A stretch of DNA of 62,937 nt, counting the filler, from Vannella sp. (lineage: Eukaryota): the NCBI GenBank assembly GCA_023345925.1. It is 6 parts of 6 records of this genome, joined end to end, with 100 filler letters (N's around TTAATTAATTAA, not from the genome) between each part and the next. Parts side by side here need not be neighbours in the genome. Positions count along the whole stretch, not along the records: positions 18,992 to 28,680 come from JAJQQN010000523.1; 5 more parts are not named here. The stretch is one strand, 5' to 3'. Below the pieces are notes generated by a model. That model ran no database searches. It was not told where the DNA came from and saw only the letters and a list, made by a program, of their open reading frames with translations. This document shows positions 10,088 through 55,183 of the stretch, piece after piece. How positions within the stretch are numbered: the first letter of the stretch is position 1; the number at the start of each line of letters is the position of its first letter. The position numbers were made by a program, and so were the translations under genes.

Positions 10088-10187
10088 NNNNNNNNNNNNN
10101 NNNNNNNNNNNNNNNNNNNNNNNNNNNNNNNTTAATTAATTAANNNNNNNNNNNNNNNNNNNNNNNNNNNNNNNNNNNNNNNNNNNN
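10088..10187. other. Artificial contig linker (N-TTAATTAATTAA-N)
   Basis: 100-nt N run with a central all-frame stop linker; identical at five places. Confidence 0.97.
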
Positions 10188-12033
10188 TCGTCTTGTTTGG
10201 AGTACTTCTCCGCATATGCGCCACTCACGAGGCGGGATGTTGGTATGTACTGTCCATACACCTTTGTGAGAGCATCACTGATCTCTCCCACTGTGCAGCG
10301 CACCCGTGCGGCTTCAATGGCTAGACCCAGCAAGTTGCTTCCTTCAGCGCCTTGCTCCTTCGCTGCAGCTTCTCCAATAGCAGCGAGTGCCTTAGCAACC
10401 TTCTCAGAGTCACGAGTAGCGCGAATCTGAGCTAAACGGTTGACTTGGCTGGTGCGGACGGCTTCGTTCTCGATGGTGAAGATCGGGATCTGGGTCTCCT
10501 CAGGGGACTTGAACTTGTTGACACCGACAATCACTTCAGCTTGGGAGTCGATGTCTGCTTGGCGCTTGGCAGCAGACTCTTCAATGCGGAGTTTCGGCAT
10601 TCCTGTGTCTACAGCCTTGGCCATGCCTCCCTTCTCATCCACTTCACGGATGAGCTTCTCAGCTGCTTCTTCCAGCTGTGCAGTGATCGCCTCCATGGCG
10701 TACGAGCCAGCCCAGGGGTCGATGATCTTAGGAATGCCGGTTTCGTACTGGAGGATCAGCTGTGTGTTACGAGCGATACGTGCTGAATGGTCTGTTGGTA
10801 GGCCAATAGCTTCGTCAAGAGCATTCGTGTGGAGGGATTGCGTGCCTCCCAACACAGCGGCCATGGCTTCCACAGTCGTTCGAACGACGTTGTTGTAAGG
10901 ATCCTGCTCGGTGAGAGACCAGCCAGACGTCTGACAATGAGTGCGAAGCAACAGAGACTTCTCGTTCTTGGGTTGGAAGCGCTCCTTGACCAAGCGAGCC
11001 CACAATCGGCGGGCGGCTCGGAGCTTGGCGATCTCCAAGTAGAAGTTCATTCCAATGCCAAAGAAGAAGGAGAAGCGAGGAGCAAGTTGGTCCACAGAGA
11101 TGCCGTTGCGCATACCGCACTTGATGTACTCAAGGCCGTCGGCAATGGTGAATCCGAGTTCAAGGACGGGGTCCGCGCCTGCTTCCTGCATGTGGTAGCC
11201 ACTGATGGAGATGGAGTTGTACAGGGGCATATGGTTAGAGGTGTACGACATAATGTCTCCAACAATGCGCATGGAAGGCTCTGGAGGGTAGATGAAGGTG
11301 TTGCGGACCATAAACTCCTTCAGGATGTCATTTTGAACGGTTCCACGGAGTTGATCTTGAGTAGCTCCTTGCTCCTCCGCAGCAACCACGTACATGGCAA
11401 GTACAGGAAGCACAGCACCGTTCATTGTCATCGAAACGGACACATCTTTGAGTGGAATGTCCTGGAAGAGGATCTTCATATCCTCCACAGAGTCAATGGC
11501 AACACCAGCCATTCCAACATCTCCAGAGACACGCGGATGGTCAGAATCGTAGCCACGGTGAGTGGCCAGGTCGAATGCAACGGACAAACCAGTTTGCCCC
11601 GCCTTCAAGTTCTTCTTGTAGAAGGCGTTCGACTCCTCAGCAGTACTAAAACCTGCATATTGACGAAGAGTCCACGTTTTGTGGGTGTACATGGAGGCGT
11701 AAGGGCCACGCGTGTAGGGGAAACTACCCGCGGTCTCTTTGTCTTCGTTCTCTTTCACGTGGTCCGGAACATCCTTGCGCATGTAGAGGGGTCTGAAGGT
11801 CAATCCCTACACCGTTCTATCCGTGAGATCAGGTTGATGAGAGAGAGGTCACGTACCGCGGAGTTCCAGCTGAGGGTGGCATGAGGGTCCAACCCTTTCA
11901 ACTCTTTCGTCGCTCGCTTGTACCAATCTTGTGGGTACGATTCTGCTCCACCAGTGTTCATCCGAGAACAGGGGCTCCACATTGCCGCGACAGCTGATCT
12001 GGCCAGTCGCTCGGTTGCTTGCACCCGCAGCAT
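10188..12033 (-). CDS. MMUT: Methylmalonyl-CoA mutase, mitochondrial; 3' end (B12-binding domain) lost at contig end
   Basis: [76 protein letters not shown]; transit-peptide exon at ~11854-12033 and one short intron. Confidence 0.96.
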
Positions 12034-12881: not shown

Positions 12882-13850
12882 TCATCGGAACTTGAACCGA
12901 TGCTTTTGGTCAGGCACTTGCAAGGTGATGTTTGGTTCCAGGACAGGAGGCTTGGAAGGGTCCCCTGACACGAGCCATTCATATCCGCCGCTGAAGACGA
13001 TTCCGAACCCTGATGCAGGCATCGAGGAGGGCGCATGACTTGCTTCAGGTAGAAGAGGCATAGAGGGAGTAGAAAGACTGAAGGGACTGCATGTCTCTGA
13101 GTGCGCCGGAGTCTTCTCTTGTGGTGGGGTGGATCCGCTGTAAAGTAAATCATCGGACCCTTCGGTTCTCTGTTCAGAGGTGTGAGCAGAAGAGGAACTA
13201 CGCTTCTGGTGTTTCTTGTAAATGGTGCGGAACTCTCTTCGCTGCTGGTGCAAGGGTTGGTGATGCTGTCGAGGATCGGAGAGGATGAGAATCCTCTTTT
13301 CGCGTAACTCTGAGATCCGTTTCCGAAGAGACTCCTTTTCCTGCTCAAGGACCTCTGTGAGAAGTACAGCCTCCAGCTTCTCAATCATGTTGGCCAGGCT
13401 CTGGATCTGCCGATAGGGCCAACGAGGTAGACCGAGATCACGACACAAGTTCTTTAACAACGTGGGACAGATGGCAAGATGCTCTGCCGCCTCTGCAATG
13501 GGTAGATGAAAGAGAGGTGCAATCATCTCATACGTAGTCTCCGACTGCCGCGCGGCCTTGAGCATCGGAGAGTGCCACCCGCTTAACCACAATTTGGGCG
13601 TTTTTTCTGTGAACCTTCTCAATTCGTCCGAATGTTGTATTCCCTCTTGAGGGTCGAAAAGAGAGGTCTGTGTGCTTTCTCTCTGATTGTTTCTTTTATT
13701 TGGCGTTCTGCTGGTCCGACTCTTGGGACTGCCCCTTTTGGGCTGAATGGAGCTCCCCGTGGGTTCCACTTGATCATCTCTTCTCGTGGAACCCTTGGAG
13801 AACTCCAGAGGTTCATCAAGGAAACCACAGACGCTTTCTAGTCTGAGCAC
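12882..13850 (-). CDS. RWP-RK domain transcription factor
   Basis: IAPLFHLPIAEAAEHLAICPTLLKNLCRDLGLPRWPYRQIQSL matches the RWP-RK domain; start uncertain. Confidence 0.88.
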   Translation of the reverse strand: MLRLESVCGFLDEPLEFSKGSTRRDDQVEPTGSSIQPKRGSPKSRTSRTPNKRNNQRESTQTSLFDPQEGIQHSDELRRFTEKTPKLWLSGWHSPMLKAARQSETTYEMIAPLFHLPIAEAAEHLAICPTLLKNLCRDLGLPRWPYRQIQSLANMIEKLEAVLLTEVLEQEKESLRKRISELREKRILILSDPRQHHQPLHQQRREFRTIYKKHQKRSSSSAHTSEQRTEGSDDLLYSGSTPPQEKTPAHSETCSPFSLSTPSMPLLPEASHAPSSMPASGFGIVFSGGYEWLVSGDPSKPPVLEPNITLQVPDQKHRFKFR

Positions 13851-13924
13851 TGAACGATTTACCCCCTTTGGATAACGCCTAGATGGGGAATCCTTGAATG
13901 AAAATCACCAATTTATTTGTTCGC

Positions 13925-15262
13925 TCACACTCGGAAGATTGGGAGGCGATTGCCAATGTCGGTTTGGCAGGTGGGGCACAGGAATTGGGTTTCGAGACAC
14001 TTGGTGCAGTAGCCGAGATGCCCACAGGGTATTAAGACACAATCTGCCATTCTCTCATAGCAGATCTTGCAGCTGTTCATCTCTAGTAACTCCTCCAGGC
14101 TCCACGCGGCCAACCTGGCAGCTTCTATCTCTAATTCACTCATGTGGGAGTCTTGGGGTGTTTCCAGGGACACCCGGAGATTGTCAAGAGAAGAGGCGGC
14201 CTTAACAAAGGCAAGCCTCTCAGGCTTATCCTGAAAGGGAGTGGGAGTCCGACAAGACTGTCCCATACTTCCCTCAAGCTGCGTTGACTTCTTGTAGCGG
14301 GTTTCCAGTGCATCCCGCATAACCTCGTCCGGAATGAGCTGCTCTATTTTCAAACGATCGCTTTCTGAGGGTGGCCGAAGACCTTTGTCCCGAAGGCGAG
14401 CGAGATACCTGGCAATGGGAGCGAGAAGTACTCCTTCTCGCTCACTTTCGTTCATATCTATGAGCCTACGAGCTTCTTCAACTTGTTTGTCCTCATACTG
14501 TTCGTCATAGTGGGCCTCTAAGAGTTTTCGGATCTCCTTATCTCCTGAAGAGTGCCACCAACAACGCTTCAAGAGCGGATCATCGCGAGCGCCTTGGTGA
14601 AGCAAGTCAGCTACCATATCCTTTTGGCCTGAAGAGCACGCATAGAAGAGAGGAGAGTTGCGGAAGCTGTCAAGAGAATTGATGTCCACACCGTCCTCCA
14701 AACACTTTCCCAGTGCTTCGATGTCCCCCTTCTGAGCACAATCCCAGATGTCCTTGCACATGAGAGTTGATCCAGCCCCTTGAGTGCGAGGACTGCGCGG
14801 TGAAGAAGTAGGACTAGACAAGGGAATGTGAGCACTGCACAAAACATTCCCTTCGGTGGGGCAATGCTTATCACACATTGCATTAGAGCACGTAGCAGAT
14901 GTCTGTGAACCGCAGGTAATGCATGGTGGAGACCATGGAAGAGAGAGTGAGGCACTTTTTGTCTCGAAAGTGAGAGGTTCAGACATCCACTCCTCAGCAG
15001 AGGGCACGAATGGGGTGATTTCGTTTGCAAGAACCTCTTGTTTCGGAAGATCTGCAAGGCTGAATGTAGTTGACCTCTTTGCAGAACTTAATCGCGGTGC
15101 TGCACTCAAAAAGGAAGATTCCCCCGCATGAACGGAGCATCGGATCTGTCCCGTTAAGCCACAGTCCGTCTTACACATCCGATTCGGACACTCAGCATCT
15201 CTTGCAAGCGGACAAAACGGGGTCTCGCACTGTTGAACCCTCAACTTCTTCCTCTTCGGCAT
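13925..15262 (-). CDS. Ankyrin + C3HC4 RING E3 ligase with two N-terminal Cys/His zinc-finger repeats
   Basis: ANK: CAQKGDIEAL...GVDINSLDSFRNSPLFYAC; RING: CKICYERMADCVLIPCGHLGYCTKC...CPTCQ. Intronless. Confidence 0.88.
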   Translation of the reverse strand: MPKRKKLRVQQCETPFCPLARDAECPNRMCKTDCGLTGQIRCSVHAGESSFLSAAPRLSSAKRSTTFSLADLPKQEVLANEITPFVPSAEEWMSEPLTFETKSASLSLPWSPPCITCGSQTSATCSNAMCDKHCPTEGNVLCSAHIPLSSPTSSPRSPRTQGAGSTLMCKDIWDCAQKGDIEALGKCLEDGVDINSLDSFRNSPLFYACSSGQKDMVADLLHQGARDDPLLKRCWWHSSGDKEIRKLLEAHYDEQYEDKQVEEARRLIDMNESEREGVLLAPIARYLARLRDKGLRPPSESDRLKIEQLIPDEVMRDALETRYKKSTQLEGSMGQSCRTPTPFQDKPERLAFVKAASSLDNLRVSLETPQDSHMSELEIEAARLAAWSLEELLEMNSCKICYERMADCVLIPCGHLGYCTKCLETQFLCPTCQTDIGNRLPIFRV

Positions 15263-15361
15263 CCACGAGGGCCAGCGAAACGTAAAATAAGTAATAAATT
15301 GTTAAATTTATCGCCTTTTGCTACAATTTTGACTTCGGGCAATGTTGAGGATCATTTCCTG

Positions 15362-18891: not shown

Positions 18892-18991
18892 NNNNNNNNN
18901 NNNNNNNNNNNNNNNNNNNNNNNNNNNNNNNNNNNTTAATTAATTAANNNNNNNNNNNNNNNNNNNNNNNNNNNNNNNNNNNNNNNNNNNN
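18892..18991. other. Artificial contig linker
   Basis: N-TTAATTAATTAA-N, 100 nt. Confidence 0.97.
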
Positions 18992-21535: not shown

Positions 21536-22733
21536 CTACTGCTTTTTGAAGCGGTTGCCGGCTTGTCGGATACGTTTGAATATGTTCTTGGAAGACCAAC
21601 TGGATCTTCTGTTGCCGCTGGAGGGGAGTCGCGCACCGCGAGGGGAGAGGAGGTTGTTGTCAAGGTCGGTGCAGGACAGTTGCGAGGGGAGGAAGCGAGG
21701 GGGACTGTGCACTGGGAGGATTTCTGTCAGATCTGGTTGTGAAGAGGATTGAACTGTGCCGCGATTGGGGAGATGATGGAAGCTGTTAAGAGCAATGGGA
21801 ACCGCGGGCAACTCCTCCTCGAATGACGACTCTTCTTCCTCACCGGCATGCTCTGACGACAGATTGAACTTCTCATCTTCACTTGTCATCCAAGCACTGG
21901 AGAGGACCTCTTCAATCGTCAACCGGTTCTCGGGAACATACTGCAACAAGTTCCTCAGGACGTAGAGCAAGTTAGGATCGTCAGGGAGCTTTGACTCGAG
22001 GATCTTGATTCTCCCTTCTGCAATAAATCGACTTAGTTCTTCCTCGCATGAAGCTGAGTATGGCCAGAAGCCGGTGAACAGCACATGCAAGAGAATTCCA
22101 AGACTCCACGCGTCCGCTTCTGCAGGGTAGTAGGACTCCTTCTTCTTCTAAACAACTGGTCAGGAGTGTAAAATGAAGAAAGGAGAGGAGACATACCACC
22201 TCTGGAGCGCAGTAGAAGCTGGTGCCCGTGATGCCAACTTTTTTGGGTTCCTCGTCGCTCCACTCAAAGCAAGAGCCGAGATCTCCAACTTTGACACAGA
22301 ACACATCGTTAATGAAGATGTTCTCGGGTTTGATGTCCAAGTGCGCGATGGATTGAGAGTGCATGGCTTGAAGGGCGAGGCAGACTTGTTTGAAGATGAG
22401 TCGAACCTCTCCTACTTCAAGGGGGCCACTTTCGATAAAGTCCAGAAGATCTTGGACCATCCTCTCCAACACAATGACACCAAAACTCCCTGTACGGAAG
22501 CTGTCAAGCATGTGGACAACTTGGGGGATGTGGTGGCATTTGGAAAGAGCGTAGACCTCACGTTCGAACTCGGACTTGAACCAGCTATTTGTCAGAGGGA
22601 CGAACTTCATCACCACGTAGTCTTTCTTTTCGTTGACCGCGCTGAAGACACTTCCTGACGCTCCTTCTCCAATCTTGCGGAGAAGGAGGTACCCTCCGAC
22701 GCGGGTACCAGTTTCCAGTCGTTGCTTCGGCAT
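21536..22733 (-). CDS. Ser/Thr protein kinase (CAMK-like), 1 intron
   Basis: IGEGASGSV, VVMK, HLDIKPEN, DLG, GTSFYCAPE; the second exon completes the C-lobe. Confidence 0.9.
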
Positions 22734-23325
22734 GTGAGGAAAAAAATGACTCAAAGCGAGACAGGCGGATTTTTGGCCCTCGTTCTTTGAAGGATCGGTG
22801 AAACTTTGTGTTCGAGCAGATCAGTTATTGGGGTAATGGCGGCGCCAATGTTTGAGAAGACGTTGCTTCTATTATTGGGGCCCGCTTGGTGGCAGGCGTT
22901 CTTTGTGCATTCAAACAAAAACTGGTCTAAAAACAGAACCTGAAACAGCTCACTTGGGCGTTGACTTTTGTTGGCATGTTCGCTTGAGTCAGTGAAGGCC
23001 GACTGTGTGGCGTCTCAGTAAAGTCTATGAAAGATGCACTCTTGATCACTTGTTAGACCAGGAGCTGATTTGACCTGAAGGACTAGCCAAGGTTCCCTTG
23101 TCCAAGCGGAATCCCACGTCACGAGTCAAAAAAGAGCCAAGTTGGAACCGCCCACCTTTTTGAGAGAGTCCACGGCCCCAGTAAACCACCGAATCCCTCC
23201 CTGTTGATCTCGGGCCACCTTTTTGGAATACGCTTTAAATCTCAATTCTTCAAACGGAATTGAATAATTGTGTAAATTAACTCAGGTGGGCAGTCGCTGG
23301 TCAGTCGCTTTGTGTTGTGGTGGGG

Positions 23326-26300
23326 ATGGACGAGGACGAGTTGCACGAAATCTGCAACAACGGGGATGTTGACGGACTTCGCAAGTTCATTCGAGACGCT
23401 CCTACTGGATATGATTTCAATCAATATGAGGTGAGAGCCTTCACCCCCAAAGGTGACCTGATCCTGACCTCTCTCAGAACGTAAGTGCGAACTTTACCAC
23501 TCCCAGACTCTTCTAAGATATAGCTTGCACCATAGTGGGTAAGTGGAGTGTTACACGTCTTCTGGCTCTCCTGCTGACCAAGTCGTCATCGCGTCCACCA
23601 TTCTAGAAAGTAAGTGAAGCTCAGAGGCGATCATTGGCAAAGTTAAGAAGCTCACGTATCACTCCTTTTAGTGGGTGAGTCTCCTTACAGCGTCGAACAA
23701 GCGCGCAGAGATTGACCGGCGATCCTCCTTCTTTTTAGAGAGTAGGTGATGGCCCCGCCTTCTGGCTTTGATTGACATACTAACTATACTATTCTCCTTC
23801 AACAGTACGTAAGTGGCTAACTGACACTGTCACTTCACCGTGGACTGAACGAGGTTCCCCCTCAGACTCCGCTTGGTATTGCTTGCAAGAAGGGGCACTT
23901 GGAGGTGGCGAAGATCTTAGCTGCGCATTCTGGCGTGAACCTTGAGCAGGTGAGTGCTCACCAGAGCGGTGTCCCGCGCACAACATCGACGAACAATCGG
24001 GACTGACCCAACTTGGGGCAGGGCGTAAGTCTTCAGCTCTTTGGGAACTCGCTGTACTAGACTCTCATCAGTAACTAACCTTTGGGTGACTCCCGTTGTG
24101 GATTAGTGGGTAAGAGGACCATCCTTTGCACTGGAGTGTGGGCGCGATAGACGAGGGCGAGCTAACAGGTCTTCTAGGTGGTAGGTTTACACTAATTGGG
24201 AAGGGATAAAGCACCAAGCTCATGGAACCGAACTCTAGGGCGTACGTGCTTTCTTCCTTCCCTTCCTGAACTCACAACCGGGAAGGAATGGGTAAGGTGT
24301 TGAGACGAGGGCGTGCCACGCGCTAACTCTGCCTTTGCTTTCTTATAGGGAGTAGGTGGCCTCTTCCAAGAGTGAGGGATTGATACTAACCTACTTTGGG
24401 AGCTTAGCTGGTGAGAGTAAGTTGTTGGATGTTCCTGCGTTTGTACCTGCGTTTCTCTCTCCTCACAACAAGCGATAGACGCCATTAGAAGTGGCTTGTT
24501 CGTCAGGCGAGGACGAGATTGTCAAGTTTCTGGTTGAGAAGCAAGTGGATGTCACCCCAAAGGTAGTTCTAACGCATAAGAGCTCCCTCCAGTGCTGATG
24601 CCTTGCTGCAGGCTTTCTTAAACTACGCTAAGCAGACCATTCGAGACAAGAAGATGAGCAAAATAGCCAACTCCAACCCCACAGAGGAGCGTGACTCACC
24701 GACAAAGCGCGCTGATGAGGCACGCCGGCAGGAGGACGAGCAGGAGAGGGAGAGGCTGTCACGAGAGAACAAGAACCTCACCAGGGATGTGAGCCGCCTC
24801 AAGAACGAGGTGTCTTTCCTCAAGGACGAAGCACAACGCCAGGAGGAGCGACTGAAGAGTGCTCGCAGCCGCTCCGACAGAGACCGGGAGGCGCTCATAG
24901 AGGAAGTCAAGACCCGAAACATTGACATCGTGCCCAGCCCCAGAGGCCGCTCATCCTCTGTGGTGGAGATCAGAGAGGTGATCAAAGAGGTGCCGGTGAT
25001 CACAGAAGTCATCAAGGAGGTGATTCGCGAGATCCATGTCCCAGGCGGGGTTGCTGGTCCCACGTATGAGTCCGAAGGGTGGTGGGGCGAGGCCAATGCA
25101 GTTCTGGAAGACACGATTGCCCTCAATCAGAAGCGAATTGGCCTTGTGGATCGAGTAGAAGTTGTTGCGGATCACCTGCGCAAGTACCGCAAGGCGGGCG
25201 GATCCACTCCCAAGAACCGCCGAGCGGCTGGACCCGTCAACCTTCGTGACGATCACAACACAATCTCTAAAAGCCACGCCAGCTGGAAGAAAATCCTGAC
25301 CGACGGCCTCGAGAGCTTCTTCGCGGGTGATTTCGGCAAGGACAACTCCATTGACGTCACCAAGATCAACCTTGTCATCAAAGCTGCTCGTAAGGAACAA
25401 GAGAAGTGCCAAGAACACATCAGAGGCTTCTACGCCAAGCTAGAGGACCTCGATAACGATAATGAGAGCGCTGACATGTCCCAAATCCGCCAGCGCAAGA
25501 AAGTTATTGAAGATCTGAAGACTACCATCCAAGGCATTGCCGACCAGTACAAATTCCAGCTCCCTGATATTGAGAAAGAGATCGCAAGTTCCGATTGCAT
25601 TCCAAGTGACCTGGAAGATATGCTGAATCTCTGGAGTTCCTGGTACAGTCGCTATCAGAACTCTACCACTTCTGCTGCTTTGAACGAGCTCTCCCGCTCT
25701 CTTGCTACAACTCTTGTCTCTGCCAAGGAGGTGCTGCAGTTCCTCAAACGAGAGGAATCCATCTTTAACTTGCCTACGATTGGAGCTGCGCCACTTCCCG
25801 TGGTGAATATCCAGCAGTACCCAGCCATTCCCACCCAATTCGTTGAGTTCCTCATTTGCTGCTTCCGTTGGGCAGCTTCAGTCAGAGCTTTCTACAAGAA
25901 GCAGATTAAGTCAGATACTGAGACTTACCGCCAGCAGCAAGCTCGCGACGAAGTCCGTGCTCGTGTCCACACCATAGAAACTCAGATTGGGCAACATCTG
26001 GTTGAGGAACAGCAGATCGATAACATGGTCAATGAATTCCAGAAGATCAAGATCTCCTTGAAGAAGATGATGAGCTCCATCGCCCGCGATGATAGTAAGC
26101 TTTTGGACTATGAGATCACCATGGAAGAAGCAGACTTCAACGATGACGCTGAGATGACTAAGGAGGACATTGAAGAGCAGATGAAGAACACTTGCCAACG
26201 CATTGGACAGACAAAGGAACACCTTTGCACCATTCAGGAGCAGAAGCGATTGATTCTTCGCAACTTGCGGAACTTTGCCCTCCGAGGCCACTTGCTGGTT

Positions 26301-28370
26301 CTTGCTAACACGGAGATTTTCGACTCTCAGGGATTCCGAAATGAGCTCCTTCGGGGAGGTATGGAAGACCTGTACTTGGTCGGAGAGAACATCACAGATT
26401 ATGAGCAAATTGAATCGTTTGCCAAGTGTGTGGCCAAGTACCGGCACAAACAAGACGCCGGAAAGATCTGCGTCATGAAGCGCTACGAGATTATGGACGA
26501 GCAACAAGTCAAGTTCTTCCGCAACGAGCTCAAACTCCTCCGCAAGATGCAGCACCCTTTCGTTGGGAGCGTCGTCGGTGTTCTCTTCACCAAGAGTGAA
26601 GCTTACATCCAACTGCCTTATTATTCTGGCGGCAGCCTCCGCGATCGATGTGTTACCATTCAGCAGAAGCGCACACAATCTGACTACGCCAACAAGCACG
26701 AGCAGCGAGATTTTCACGAGATGAAGCGAATCTTCCACGAGGTGCTCCAAGCGTTGGCTTACTTGCACTCGCAATCTATCACTCACTATGATGTCAAGCC
26801 CGAGAATATCGTATTCGACGAGTACGAGCATCCCATTCTCATTGATTTTGGCATCAGCGAGGATCCCAACAGCACTCTCTTCACTCAGAATCCTGAGAAT
26901 GCCAGCTCACAAATTCGTGGGAGTGTGGGGTACATTGCACCAGAGATCAAGTCTGGCCAACCCTCCATTCTCACTTCAGATTGCTGGTCCTTTGGCGTGA
27001 TGCTCTTTGAGTCATTCTACGACCTGCCTAACTTTGACCTGGAAAGCTTGGGACTGGTGGAGATTCCAGCACACTCTGACGAGGATCTGCGGGCTCTGTT
27101 GAAGGGACTACTCAACACGGACCCCTCTCGGCGATTCACAGCATCTCAAGCCCTTAAAAGCGCATTCTTCTCTCAGAAGTCGTACGAGAAAGCCTTTGAC
27201 AGGGAGAGTACAGTTCAATCTGCCAAGAAGCTGGAGGCTTTCCGCCACTTCCTGGAGATCATTCGCAACAACGATCGTCTTTTCATCATCAACATTCACC
27301 GCGAAGTGTTGGTGAAAGACATCTTCACCGAGTTCCGCAGCAAGACAGCGAACCCTGAAGCTATGCGATTCCAAACCGTCGTCCAGTACATTGGCGAGAG
27401 TGGCATCGACACGGGGGGTCTCCGCCGCGACCTTTACTGCTCCTTCTTTAAGGAGATCTGCGATAGCAAGTATGGCATGTTTGAACTCAGCAGCGAGGGC
27501 AAGTTCTATTACCCCATTCCAGACAAGGACCGCAAGCAGAGCTTAGAAGAGCAGTATCTTCTCTTTGGCAAGATCCTGGCCAAGACTATGATTGACGGGG
27601 ACGTCATTGGAGACTATTTCCCCATCACTCTGTTCAAGTTCCTTGCGGACCAGCAGGATACCATCGACCTTTCTGATGTCTATCTGTACGATAAGCAGCT
27701 TTATGGGAACTTACAGTCATTGCTTATGCAGTCCATTGATGGGTGGGAGCTTGATTGGGACATTGACGAGAATCCCAACAACTACGAACTCATTGATGAC
27801 CGCAACAAGGACGTTTACATCCTCCTGAAGAGTCGCTCAGTGCTGATTGACCAAAGGAAAGAGGCGCTCAATGCGATTAAGAAGGGCTTCCAATCCGTGC
27901 CTGAATTACTGTCTCACTTGGCCCTCTTATCGCCAGTGGAACTGCGCCTCCTCCTCAGCGGAGAGACGTACATTGACGGTGACATGGTTCTGCATCAGAT
28001 TGAGTTTGAGGAGCGGTGGGAGAAGCCAGATGCTCAGGCTACACGAAAGAACTTCTCCAAATGGATCCGGACAGAAGCCAGCTCGGACCAGCTGAAGATG
28101 GTCCTCATGCTGACAACTGCCTCGCCCACCATCCCCGTTGGTGGCTTCAGCCCTCCCATCAAGGTCCGCTATGTTGATGGTAAGCAACTCCCTCTGCGTT
28201 CTCACTCCCTTCTGACATGAACCAACTCAGATTCGACTCGGTTGCCCGAAGGGCAGACTTGCGTCAACATGCTCATGCTTCCTAACTACAAGGATGATTA
28301 CGCTCTATTAACCAAGCGCTTTTCAACCGCTTTGGAGAACATTGGATCGAGCGGGTTCCAACTCAACTAA
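23326..28370 (+). CDS. Ankyrin-repeat (microexon-encoded loops) - coiled-coil - protein kinase - HECT E3 ligase fusion
   Basis: Exon 23326-23430 (MDEDELHEICNNGDVDGLRKFI...FNQYE); 6 microexons; exon 23866-23949 (TPLGIACKKGHLEVAKILAAHSGVNLEQ); 7 microexons; exon 24479-24562 (TPLEVACSSGEDEIVKFLVEKQVDVTPK); exon 24612-28179 with kinase (VMK, HYDVKPEN, DFG, GYIAPE) and HECT (GESGIDTGGLRRD); last exon 28231-28370 with the catalytic Cys motif LPEGQTCVNMLMLPNY and TAA. Confidence 0.9.
23478..23808 (+). other. Microexon array A1: six 3-nt exons AAC, TGG, AAA, TGG, AGA, TAC (N W K W R Y)
   Basis: Positions 23478, 23536, 23607, 23672, 23739, 23806; each is yAG|NNN|GTRRGT, separated by 47-68-nt introns with branch-point-like motifs. 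Confidence 0.85.
24022..24410 (+). other. Microexon array A2: GGC, TGG, GTG, GGC, GAATGG (6 nt), GGA, CTG (G W V G EW G L)
   Basis: Positions 24022, 24107, 24178, 24239, 24286-24291, 24349, 24408; each flanked by an AG acceptor and a GTAAG/GTAGG/GTACG/GTGAG donor. Confidence 0.82.
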
Positions 28371-28680: not shown

Positions 28681-28780
28681 NNNNNNNNNNNNNNNNNNNN
28701 NNNNNNNNNNNNNNNNNNNNNNNNTTAATTAATTAANNNNNNNNNNNNNNNNNNNNNNNNNNNNNNNNNNNNNNNNNNNN
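28681..28780. other. Artificial contig linker
   Basis: N-TTAATTAATTAA-N, 100 nt. Confidence 0.97.
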
Positions 28781-30218: not shown

Positions 30219-32494
30219 ATGGCACACACGGGTGGCCTCCGAGACGCCATTTACTCTGGCAATTTGAGCCAGTTGAAGGCGTGTTTGGACGCCAATCCTG
30301 AGGCTCTTAACCAAGTGGGTCCTCCTTCACTTTGAGAAAGCTATCTTTTGAGAAGGAGAGGCTTGATGAAGGAGAAGACTCACCAAAAGGGGATCATTTA
30401 AGATTGTTAGTGACACATTACCTCGCTAAGGAGAAGCAGGCGAATACAGTACACTAAAACGGTCTCTTTTAGTGGGTAAGTGATTGATCCATAACCTTTC
30501 ATGAGGAAAAGGAGATTTCCAGAAGATCCTGATCAGAGAAGAGAGGTTCTCACCGAAAGTCTCATGTAGGAGGTCAGTAACTCATTGAAGGAATCTTCTT
30601 GAGAAGGAGATGAGAGAAGAACTCACTAAAAAGGCTCATTCAGCAAGTAAGGACTGATCTGCTGCTCCCTTTTATGATAAGATCAGCTCATTCAAATGAA
30701 CTTTAGGATGTGAGTACCTATGTACTTCTGATGAGGAGATGGACCCACTTGATCAGAAAAACTCACCAAAAGTCCCCTTAGCGAGTAAGGATAGTTAGTC
30801 AGATAGAGAGGAGGGCCATTCATCATGATGGGCCTTTCAGGGCGTAGGTTACCATTTCAAAAGAGAAGAATTCAGCAAACGGATCTCTTTTAGTGGGTAA
30901 GTGACTGATTGATCCATCACCTGCCTTTGGAAAACCAGAGATTCAACAAGAGAAAATACCATAAGGCTCACTTAGAGTCTCGTTTAGTATGTAAGTGACA
31001 AACTGTCATCTGGTTTGATGAAGAAAGCCTTCTCTAAAATGTTGTGTTTAGGAAGTAAGTGATTCTAAGAGAGAAGAAGAACTCACCAAAAGCGCCCCTT
31101 TCAGAAAGTAAGTGACTGATATCCTAAGTTGATGAGCTTGAGAGAGGGGAATTCACCAAAATGGTCTGTTTTTAGAGCGTAAGCGACTGGTTCATTACTT
31201 TCAAACCGGCCATATGAAGGACATGTACTCATCAGGGCTTTGCTTAGTGGGTAAGTGATTCAATCCATCACTTTTGAGAAAAGACTCTCAGAAGGAAAGG
31301 AAATTGCGAGACACTGATCAATCGAGTCCAATTTAGGCAGTAAGTTATCAGGCTGTAAGCTGATTAGAAAACTGTTCCCCAAGACAAGGAGTAGTGCTCA
31401 TTAAATGATGAATCTCTTTTAGTGGGTAAGGAACTGAATGATCATCTCTATTTGGAGAAAGGAACTAATTATCACTTTAGGTAAGTTGCTGGGATTGCTA
31501 CCTACTCCCCCTGCCAATGATTCATAGGATACCTTTGAAAATTGCTCACAAGCTTGAAGACCATTCTAGGATGGGCTTCGTTTCAAGGATGGGACAAAAT
31601 AGTAGAGTTCTTGGTTACTCGACGTGGCATCGACCTTCAAAAAGGAGTATGTTCAAGGTTTGTGAGAGATTCTTCTCACATGATTTTTCAGAATGTAAGT
31701 TCTTTCTATCAGTGTCTAGAACTTGAGGTGGCTAGGTGAGTCAGCTTTACCAAGATATAACCTTGATTGAATGATAATCTTATTGACCCTGAGATTCAAG
31801 AGTTCGTGTTCACATACCGTGCTCCTGAAAATTCTCGAGAGACTCTGAGATAAGGAAGAAGAACTCACCAAAAGACTTTAGACGGTGAGTGATCGATTCA
31901 TCTCTGCTTTTGAGGAGAGGAGCTGCACTATCAGCAGGGAAAATAGCTCACAGAGAAGAATTATTTAGAGAGTGCGTGATTTTTTCCACCTTATGAGGAA
32001 AAGTACTTCTTGAATGGAACTTGGTCAGAGGTTTATGAGGAGAAACTGACCAAGTTCTGAACTTTAGGGAGTGAGTGACTCAAAAATCACGGTAGAATGG
32101 AGGTGAGCATTACTGAAGATGTTTTAGGATGTAAGTGCCTCATGCATACTCCTTGATGTTGAGCGGATGCGAAGAAAAGACTCAAACTGACTAAGGAATG
32201 TAATTTAGACAGTGAGTAACTGATCACTCTTTGGTGAAAACCCTCTCACGTGGGGCATGCTCAGTTGGTAGGTAGTAGACTATCACTACAAGAAAAACTA
32301 ACCGAAACCGGATTCAGTCCTCGCTGGATCTAGCTCTGCGTCGAGGACCCACACACAATGCAGTTATTGAAATTCTCATCTCTGCAGGGGCAAAGTGCAA
32401 AGATGTGCGAAATCTGAGTGTCTACCAAGGAGTACTTACTTCAGCAGGAGCAAACTTTGATGGAAAAATATCTGGGGGAGAAGAACCAGGCTGA
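30219..32494 (+). CDS. Small stand-alone three-ankyrin-repeat protein with microexon-encoded loops (not in ORF track)
   Basis: Exon 30219-30314 (MAHTGGLRDAIYSGNLSQLKACLDANPEALNQ); 15 microexons; exon 31560-31646 (TILGWASFQGWDKIVEFLVTRRGIDLQKG); 7 microexons; exon 32318-32494 (SSLDLALRRGPTHNAVIEILISAGAK...EPG*). All junctions are phase 0. Confidence 0.85.
30403..31425 (+). other. Microexon array B1: fifteen 3-nt exons ATT TGG GAG CAA GAT CGA GGC TGG TAT GAA AAA AGC TGG GCA TGG (I W E Q D R G W Y E K S W A W)
   Basis: Starts at 30403, 30473, 30570, 30644, 30707, 30782, 30841, 30894, 30988, 31052, 31105, 31176, 31248, 31337, 31423; each AG|NNN|GT, usually with an upstream CTCAC/CTCAT-like branch motif. 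Confidence 0.87.
31692..32267 (+). other. Microexon array B2: AAT, ACG, AGA, GGA, GAT, ACA, TTG (N T R G D T L)
   Basis: Starts at 31692, 31882, 31969, 32068, 32128, 32209, 32265; each yAG|NNN|GT. Additional ambiguous sites at ~31735 and ~31801. Confidence 0.82.
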
Positions 32495-40605: not shown

Positions 40606-40705
40606 NNNNNNNNNNNNNNNNNNNNNNNNNNNNNNNNNNNNNNNNNNNNTTAATTAATTAANNNNNNNNNNNNNNNNNNNNNNNNNNNNNNNNNNNNNNN
40701 NNNNN
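40606..40705. other. Artificial contig linker
   Basis: N-TTAATTAATTAA-N, 100 nt. Confidence 0.97.
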
Positions 40706-55083: not shown

Positions 55084-55183
55084 NNNNNNNNNNNNNNNNN
55101 NNNNNNNNNNNNNNNNNNNNNNNNNNNTTAATTAATTAANNNNNNNNNNNNNNNNNNNNNNNNNNNNNNNNNNNNNNNNNNNN
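55084..55183. other. Artificial contig linker
   Basis: N-TTAATTAATTAA-N, 100 nt. Confidence 0.97.

Follow-up and report, generated by a model that had tools for sequence, protein, structure and literature searches.

A Vannella sp. gene predicted to join ankyrin loops spelled by codon-sized exons to a protein kinase and a HECT ubiquitin ligase

We describe a predicted gene on the forward strand of a 62,937-nucleotide stretch of DNA from Vannella sp. (GenBank assembly GCA_023345925.1), referred to here as the window, which consists of six parts joined end to end. The gene, at positions 23326 to 28370, lies wholly inside the contig occupying 18992-28680, and its joined model is a single open frame of 1340 amino acids (aa) with one terminal stop, covering an ankyrin module, coiled coils, a protein kinase and a HECT domain. 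Residues of two hairpin loops in the ankyrin module come from 13 very short predicted exons, with a length of 3 nucleotides (nt) in 12 of them and 6 nt in the other, which lie between phase-0 GT-AG introns of 44-82 nt. We favor, at a probability of about one half, the reading that the gene encodes a splicing-variable ankyrin binder coupled to a kinase and HECT output.

In the mechanism that we propose, the gene would encode a cytosolic protein, and its transcripts would leave out different subsets of the codon-sized exons; a single gene could then present numerous hairpin surfaces, rich in aromatic residues, on an ankyrin module of three repeats. A protein bound by these surfaces would be brought, via the coiled-coil body, to the constant kinase and HECT ligase, where it would be phosphorylated and ubiquitinated. 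Splicing of the 5' part, exon skipping, loop binding, and phosphorylation and ubiquitination of the partner are the steps that we infer.

Predicted gene structure

The features of the gene are as follows.
23326..23430, + strand: exon 1, read from the sequence; 35 codons from ATG, with an in-frame stop upstream at 23278
23431..23865, + strand: array 1, six predicted 3-nt exons at 23478 (N), 23536 (W), 23607 (K), 23672 (W), 23739 (R) and 23806 (Y)
23866..23949, + strand: ankyrin exon 2, 28 codons with TPL at the start; Pfam Ank, E 2.1e-4
23950..24478, + strand: array 2, predicted 3-nt exons at 24022 (G), 24107 (W), 24178 (V), 24239 (G), 24349 (G) and 24408 (L)
24286-24291, + strand: 6-nt exon of array 2 (EW), with a non-YAG (AAG) acceptor; the least certain of the exons
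24479..24562, + strand: ankyrin exon 3, 28 codons with TPL at the start; Pfam Ank_3, E 5.9e-5
24563..24611, + strand: intron of 49 nt, phase 0, from the ankyrin module to the large exon
24612-28179, + strand: large exon, 3568 nt
24612..26339, + strand: first part of the large exon, with a short helix, a long coiled coil and a helical bundle in the AlphaFold model
26340..27170, + strand: protein kinase domain; Pfam Pkinase, E 3.3e-38
27290..28179, + strand: HECT domain, N-lobe and most of the C-lobe; Pfam HECT, E 3.3e-32
28180..28230, + strand: intron of 51 nt, phase 1, spliced at this point in relatives P0001, P0113 and P0118
28231..28370, + strand: last exon, with the HECT catalytic Cys codon at 28260, then the stop; Pfam HECT, E 1.1e-6

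A preliminary description of this DNA had listed two microexon arrays, N-W-K-W-R-Y and G-W-V-G-EW-G-L, each ending right before a TPL motif; every element stands at its claimed position, and both endings are confirmed. The six codon exons of array 1 are separated by seven introns of 47-68 nt and the exons of array 2 by eight introns of 44-82 nt. All of the 5' introns are in phase 0 with GT donors and AG acceptors, and 15 of the 16 contain a branch-like motif. Splicing of this 5' part, ankyrin exons and arrays included, is predicted. Of the three ankyrin exons originally proposed, the second and third match Pfam ankyrin models, and exon 2 can be aligned to ankyrin repeats and a designed ankyrin repeat protein (DARPin) in the PDB; exon 1 has no Pfam match and was judged by eye to be an N-cap-like half repeat. 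No signal peptide was seen in exon 1. The short helix that opens the large exon is, in the structural model, a probable ankyrin C-cap.

The kinase-HECT open reading frame is real, whereas its earlier length of 1205 aa is wrong, having been counted from a TTG at 24603 inside an intron; from stop to stop the frame measures 1215 aa. As claimed, the third ankyrin exon joins in frame at 24612 in the predicted splice, leaving the 1340-aa frame open throughout, and the final exon supplies the catalytic Cys: it matches Pfam HECT, and P0001, P0113 and P0118 are uninterrupted proteins across the last junction into the Cys motif, so this splice is real in the relatives.

Similarity to relatives sets in where the large exon starts, at its acceptor (A-F-M-N-Y in P0115, against A-F-L-N-Y in the window gene), which argues that the frame continues upstream. 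This bears on the idea that the ankyrin exons form a short gene of their own and that translation of the kinase-HECT exon begins at a separate start. In keeping with that idea, the donor of intron 24563-24611 (GTAGTT) is weak, retention of the intron would yield a short ankyrin-only frame that stops after 11 codons, three relatives have a Met near the exon start, and a second gene of the window, described below, is seemingly ankyrin-only. Against it, the window gene has Leu at the Met position, the P0115 similarity starts two residues earlier, the intron has an in-frame YAG and a branch-like site, and ankyrin-kinase-HECT proteins occur in other protists. We regard separate genes as highly improbable.

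None of the eight close relatives retrieved includes the N-terminal module, which shows that gene callers miss it, even if the loops are fixed. Among 2501 candidate proteins for a match to residues 1-300, one matched, a fragment of the same sequence lacking the ankyrin part. In viral contigs, none of 70 pattern matches was confirmed as orthologue DNA and the array pattern gave no match; the metagenome scan, which was aimed at the array pattern rather than at orthologues, gave no recognized orthologue of the window gene.

Statistics and composition of the codon-sized exons

The exon layout is well beyond chance. Positions 23431-24478 contain 12 YAG-NNN-donor sites, whereas 500 dinucleotide shuffles gave 0.15 on average and never more than 3; the donor pattern was chosen after the sites had been seen. 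Seven other exon lengths gave 0 or 1 site apiece in the same interval. A looser count over the + strand of the whole window found 48 sites for length 3, versus 10-17 for lengths 1-2 and 4-12. The arrays encode the β-hairpin just before the TPL of the ankyrin repeats, the same region that is randomized in designed ankyrin binders (portions of PMC4308713). The ceiling of 2^13 isoforms given earlier is a count of exon sets and overstates the repertoire, since distinct loop peptides number 56 x 104 = 5824 pairs, or 1786 when repeat spacing is kept at 33-36 residues.

Of the 36 codons in the loops of both window genes, 8 encode tryptophan, which is absent from all 126 positions of 21 ordinary ankyrin loops in related proteins. 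Tryptophan also accounts for 8 of the 13 loop codons that end in G, against a background of 3.3%; because the excess persists among G-ending codons, splice-site preference alone is insufficient to explain it.

A tandem-repeat artifact was considered for the window gene and rejected because its introns are unrelated and its codons varied, unlike control repeats.

A second ankyrin gene with codon-sized exons

The next contig in the window holds a second gene with the same layout.
30219..32494, + strand: second gene
30219-30314, + strand: N-cap-like exon, followed by 15 codon exons
31560-31646, + strand: ankyrin exon, followed by 7 codon exons
from 32318, + strand: ankyrin-like last exon, running into a stop

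With all 15 codon exons included, the spacing across its first loop would be about 43 residues versus 33, and such a loop is hard to explain as one fixed structure. Its introns are related (z>4 in 30 of 276 pairs), and at two points inside long introns, 31480/31481 and 31735/31736, an acceptor abuts a donor (AG|GT) with no exon between. These points look like units that may have lost their codon, and together with the related introns they argue that an array gains and loses members as intron-plus-codon units are duplicated or lost. No enzyme domain and no open splice route out of the last exon were found for the second gene, and neither its exon 1 nor the coiled-coil frame downstream is similar to the first gene. 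It may be a stand-alone sensor or a decaying gene.

Codon-sized exons in other genomes and metagenomes

Other sequences were scanned with a W-anchored pattern of three codon exons. As a control, prokaryote genomes gave 23 loci, of which 21 were plain tandem repeats whose triplet was fixed or nearly so and the other two were real arrays on evidently eukaryotic contigs. Metagenomes gave at least 121 stretches with the pattern. Among 73 scored metagenome loci (L045-L122; five of 78 were dropped as overlaps or plain repeats, along with one strand of L110), 42 carry varied arrays of 6-67 codon exons, with one stop in 949 codons. Of 55 flanking frames of the metagenome loci, five matched HET, three others were parts of one NACHT-ankyrin gene (L054), three matched a GTPase-like family weakly and one matched a ubiquitin-like domain.

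The array of L070 (2236-3111, - strand), a fungal-type locus with near-identical array introns, stops immediately ahead of a terminal ankyrin-like exon that starts with S-P-L, the same point as before TPL in the window gene; the terminal exon has no Pfam match. Three further loci (L043, L040 and L044, on contigs C69, C114 and C171 of G001; earlier L015, L022) lie on contigs of 17-19% GC in a Mycoplasma-labelled genome and are evidently eukaryotic contamination. Each array comprises some 30-37 codon exons, separated by 30-nt introns (GTAAGT..TTTAG) that are almost identical. A shared C-P-H-K-G run closes two of the arrays, a stop codon occurs in one, and L044 has a RING-like stretch downstream.

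These loci and the second gene bear on an account in which variation lies in the DNA: intron-plus-codon units would be duplicated, deleted and mutated between strains or species, and each genome would make mainly one isoform. The account agrees with L015, L022 and L070, where introns are nearly identical and codons vary, and with the related introns and the two exonless acceptor-donor points of the second gene. The window gene shows little recent duplication (2 of 120 intron pairs), and the account is in any case compatible with skipping. We consider it unlikely as the main explanation.

Kinase and HECT domains

The β3 Lys, αC Glu, catalytic Asp, Lys, Asn and DF(G) residues are invariant in all 16 aligned proteins, and the window kinase retains Lys, αC Glu, HYD, DFG and APE. 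The glycine-rich P-loop (GxGxxG) was found in none of the 16; the P-loop is short and glycine-free, and the predicted structure keeps its short hairpin. The Arg of HRD is replaced by Tyr (HYD, non-RD) in the window gene and in seven of seven close relatives. Pfam and structure matches of the kinase are CAMK-like (SIK3, AMPK, CHK2) and not IRAK.

The predicted structure folds as a kinase plus HECT (predicted local distance difference test score, pLDDT, 82), and the HECT part matches the HUWE1 HECT in Foldseek (E 2e-16). The catalytic Cys is kept in spliced relatives, and the usual His before T-C is Gln in the window gene and its close relatives. The protein has a HECT fold with a catalytic Cys near the C-terminus and is a putative ubiquitin ligase. 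The middle section of 570 residues consists of long helices, the first part of the large exon having a mean AlphaFold pLDDT of 69; a fold search with this region gave no match at E<=0.001 and the Atlas gave none. A Pfam scan of the large exon found the kinase and HECT domains only, and no NACHT (STAND) NTPase domain.

Relatives of the kinase-HECT half

Five relative clusters share 72-85% identity with the window gene over the kinase and HECT domains and 55-69% over the full exon. A quick tree of 46 rows places them with it in a clade of short branches at 100% support; the tree was built from matches found here, and its deep forks are unsure because of long branches. One relative, P0118 (77% identical), is from a set of transcriptomes of marine protists.

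A wider search retrieved many kinase-HECT fusions at about 30% identity. Among 39 kinase-HECT relatives, picked from 150 matches listed by the criterion of a match across both domains, nine have ankyrin (ANK) front ends, four TPR, two LRR, one RCC1, one a β-helix and two a Zn-ribbon, 19 with a module in all, and 20 have none. This variety could be read as recognition modules swapped on one output. ANK-kinase-HECT proteins are recorded in Soliformovum, Gefionella and Willaertia, and transcript-derived proteins of relatives have the same architecture. Together with the gene model and the Pfam matches, these proteins support the original proposal that the ankyrin module is wired to kinase and HECT outputs.

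The matches P0120-P0218 make up a broad, little-described protist family of coiled-coil, kinase and HECT proteins with swapped N-terminal repeats (ANK, TPR, LRR-filamin, RCC1, β-helix, Zn-ribbon); its named members come from Naegleria, Willaertia, Pharyngomonas, Gloeochaete, Soliformovum and Gefionella. A Naegleria lovaniensis relative, P0138, was also found.

Other features of the window

A second protein kinase gene (21536-22820, - strand) lies head to head with the ankyrin-kinase-HECT gene, about 500 bases upstream. The genome is intron-bearing, with about 50% GC and introns of 44-95 nt. Linkers at 10088-10187, 18892-18991, 28681-28780, 40606-40705 and 55084-55183 are runs of N with a 12-base spacer that has stops in all frames, and the contigs flanking a linker are not true neighbors. 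Other genes read in the window are listed here.
126-1832: trefoil-GH15 fusion
10136-11806: methylmalonyl-CoA mutase
12882-13904: RWP-RK protein
13925-15301: ankyrin-RING protein without codon-sized exons

We take the RWP-RK and methylmalonyl-CoA mutase genes, which are on other contigs, to indicate a non-fungal host, provided that the contigs derive from one organism.

Fixed or variable loops

Several observations weigh against variable loops in an immune receptor. Splicing of the arrays is itself predicted from the DNA sequence. Inclusion of every codon exon gives a TPL-to-TPL spacing of 36 residues, three above consensus, and natural spacings (n=7) are 32-35 with one of 43, near that of the window gene; skipping is therefore not forced. 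The introns of the window gene are mostly unrelated (z>4 in 2 of 120 pairs), and its array is, to judge from that divergence, old and stable. Because units were duplicated in the second gene, its Trp counts cannot be treated as independent. The enzyme half is strongly conserved and short-branched, with no visible birth-death family, and two isoforms of a distant Soliformovum homologue have identical ankyrin loops. Non-RD kinases are linked to immunity in plants and animals (parts of PMC4654520); across the present family they are widespread (Arg in only 14 of 36 scored), and the non-RD state is thus weak support for an immune reading.

Much of this fits a protein in which the codon exons are all included and two slightly long, Trp-rich loops bind one conserved partner of a regulatory kinase-E3 ligase. 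Full inclusion would add three residues per loop, the introns have diverged, and the enzyme half is more conserved than the nearest importin-β relatives (50-62%, in other genomes). Drosophila sowah has exons of 3, 3, 6 and 12 nt, as listed in part of PMC8042270, and Sowah loops may be fixed. Keeping 15 introns for 14 residues would, however, be a cost without a gain, and the 15-codon loop of the second gene and the truffle precedent discussed below also speak against fixed loops. We see this account as possible, though doubtful.

Loop diversification by splicing in the window gene remains plausible by analogy with that precedent and with the 15-codon loop. A role in sensing non-self or pathogens is a tentative suggestion that we put below even odds, and action against giant viruses or intracellular bacteria, which the preliminary description had in mind, is speculative. 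Bolder still is a natural, DARPin-like library, in a free-living protist, of thousands of Trp-rich binders wired to a kinase and ligase. It would serve inside the cell as a receptor with somatic diversity, marking the proteins of intruders for degradation, and codon-exon arrays would be a eukaryote-wide device for diversifying receptors and not something peculiar to truffles; we think this rather unlikely.

If the loops are spliced in subsets, a one-gene recognition repertoire would be directly coupled to ubiquitination in a protist, offering a testable handle on how phagotrophic microbial eukaryotes recognize intruders. The gene also suggests a candidate function for uncharacterized protist kinase-HECT ligases, whose front ends may be swapped repeat modules.

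Comparison with known systems

The kinase-HECT proteins of Naegleria and Ectocarpus are described, in the consulted part of PMC3673628, as having an unknown function. In this GL-Bikonta family a divergent HECT directly follows the kinase, an arrangement that the window gene shares; unlike the window gene, the family is not described there as having microexons or an ankyrin front end. HACE1, an ankyrin-HECT ligase of holozoans and Acanthamoeba (same part of that article), shares N-terminal ankyrin repeats and a C-terminal HECT with the window gene, but has no kinase and no known codon-sized exons and is not the best HECT match.

The annotated exons of Drosophila sowah, an ankyrin gene, appear in Table S4 of PMC8042270. 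Animal Sowah genes resemble the window gene in combining ankyrin repeats with 3-nt and 6-nt exons and differ in having few such exons and long introns. To our knowledge, Sowah proteins have neither a kinase nor a HECT domain. Brown algal NB-ARC-TPR and ROCO-LRR genes undergo exon shuffling and alternative splicing (as cited in a section of PMC13449251). They diversify a repeat sensor at the level of splicing outside animals, plants and fungi; in brown algae an exon is a whole repeat, whereas in the window gene it is a single loop residue.

Our literature search, with subscription journals and bioRxiv supplements outside its scope, found no relevant description of a protist microexon-ankyrin gene or of kinase-HECT proteins in immunity. 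Each half of the gene has a precedent; the searches run turned up neither the two combined nor such a device in this position outside fungi.

The closest parallel is offered by the nank genes of Tuber melanosporum, ankyrin receptors diversified via alternative splicing of dozens of 3-bp exons (passages of PMC4986451, PMC13449251 and PMC9815663, citing Iotti et al. 2012). The window gene shares with them ankyrin repeats (two exons by Pfam) and arrays of 3-bp exons, that is, codon-sized exons alongside ankyrin recognition repeats with in-frame combinatorial potential. Tuber nank NLR proteins have a NACHT domain; the window gene has none and is for this reason not a nank member, its sensor being N-terminal and its outputs a kinase and a HECT ligase. 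Its host is likely not a fungus, its arrays, of 6 and 7 exons, are short and their introns have diverged, and its splicing is predicted, whereas alternative splicing has been shown in Tuber. The codon-exon device itself is not new, being present in truffle NLR genes and common in metagenomes; if our reading is correct, the window gene would extend the truffle mechanism to another lineage and another output.

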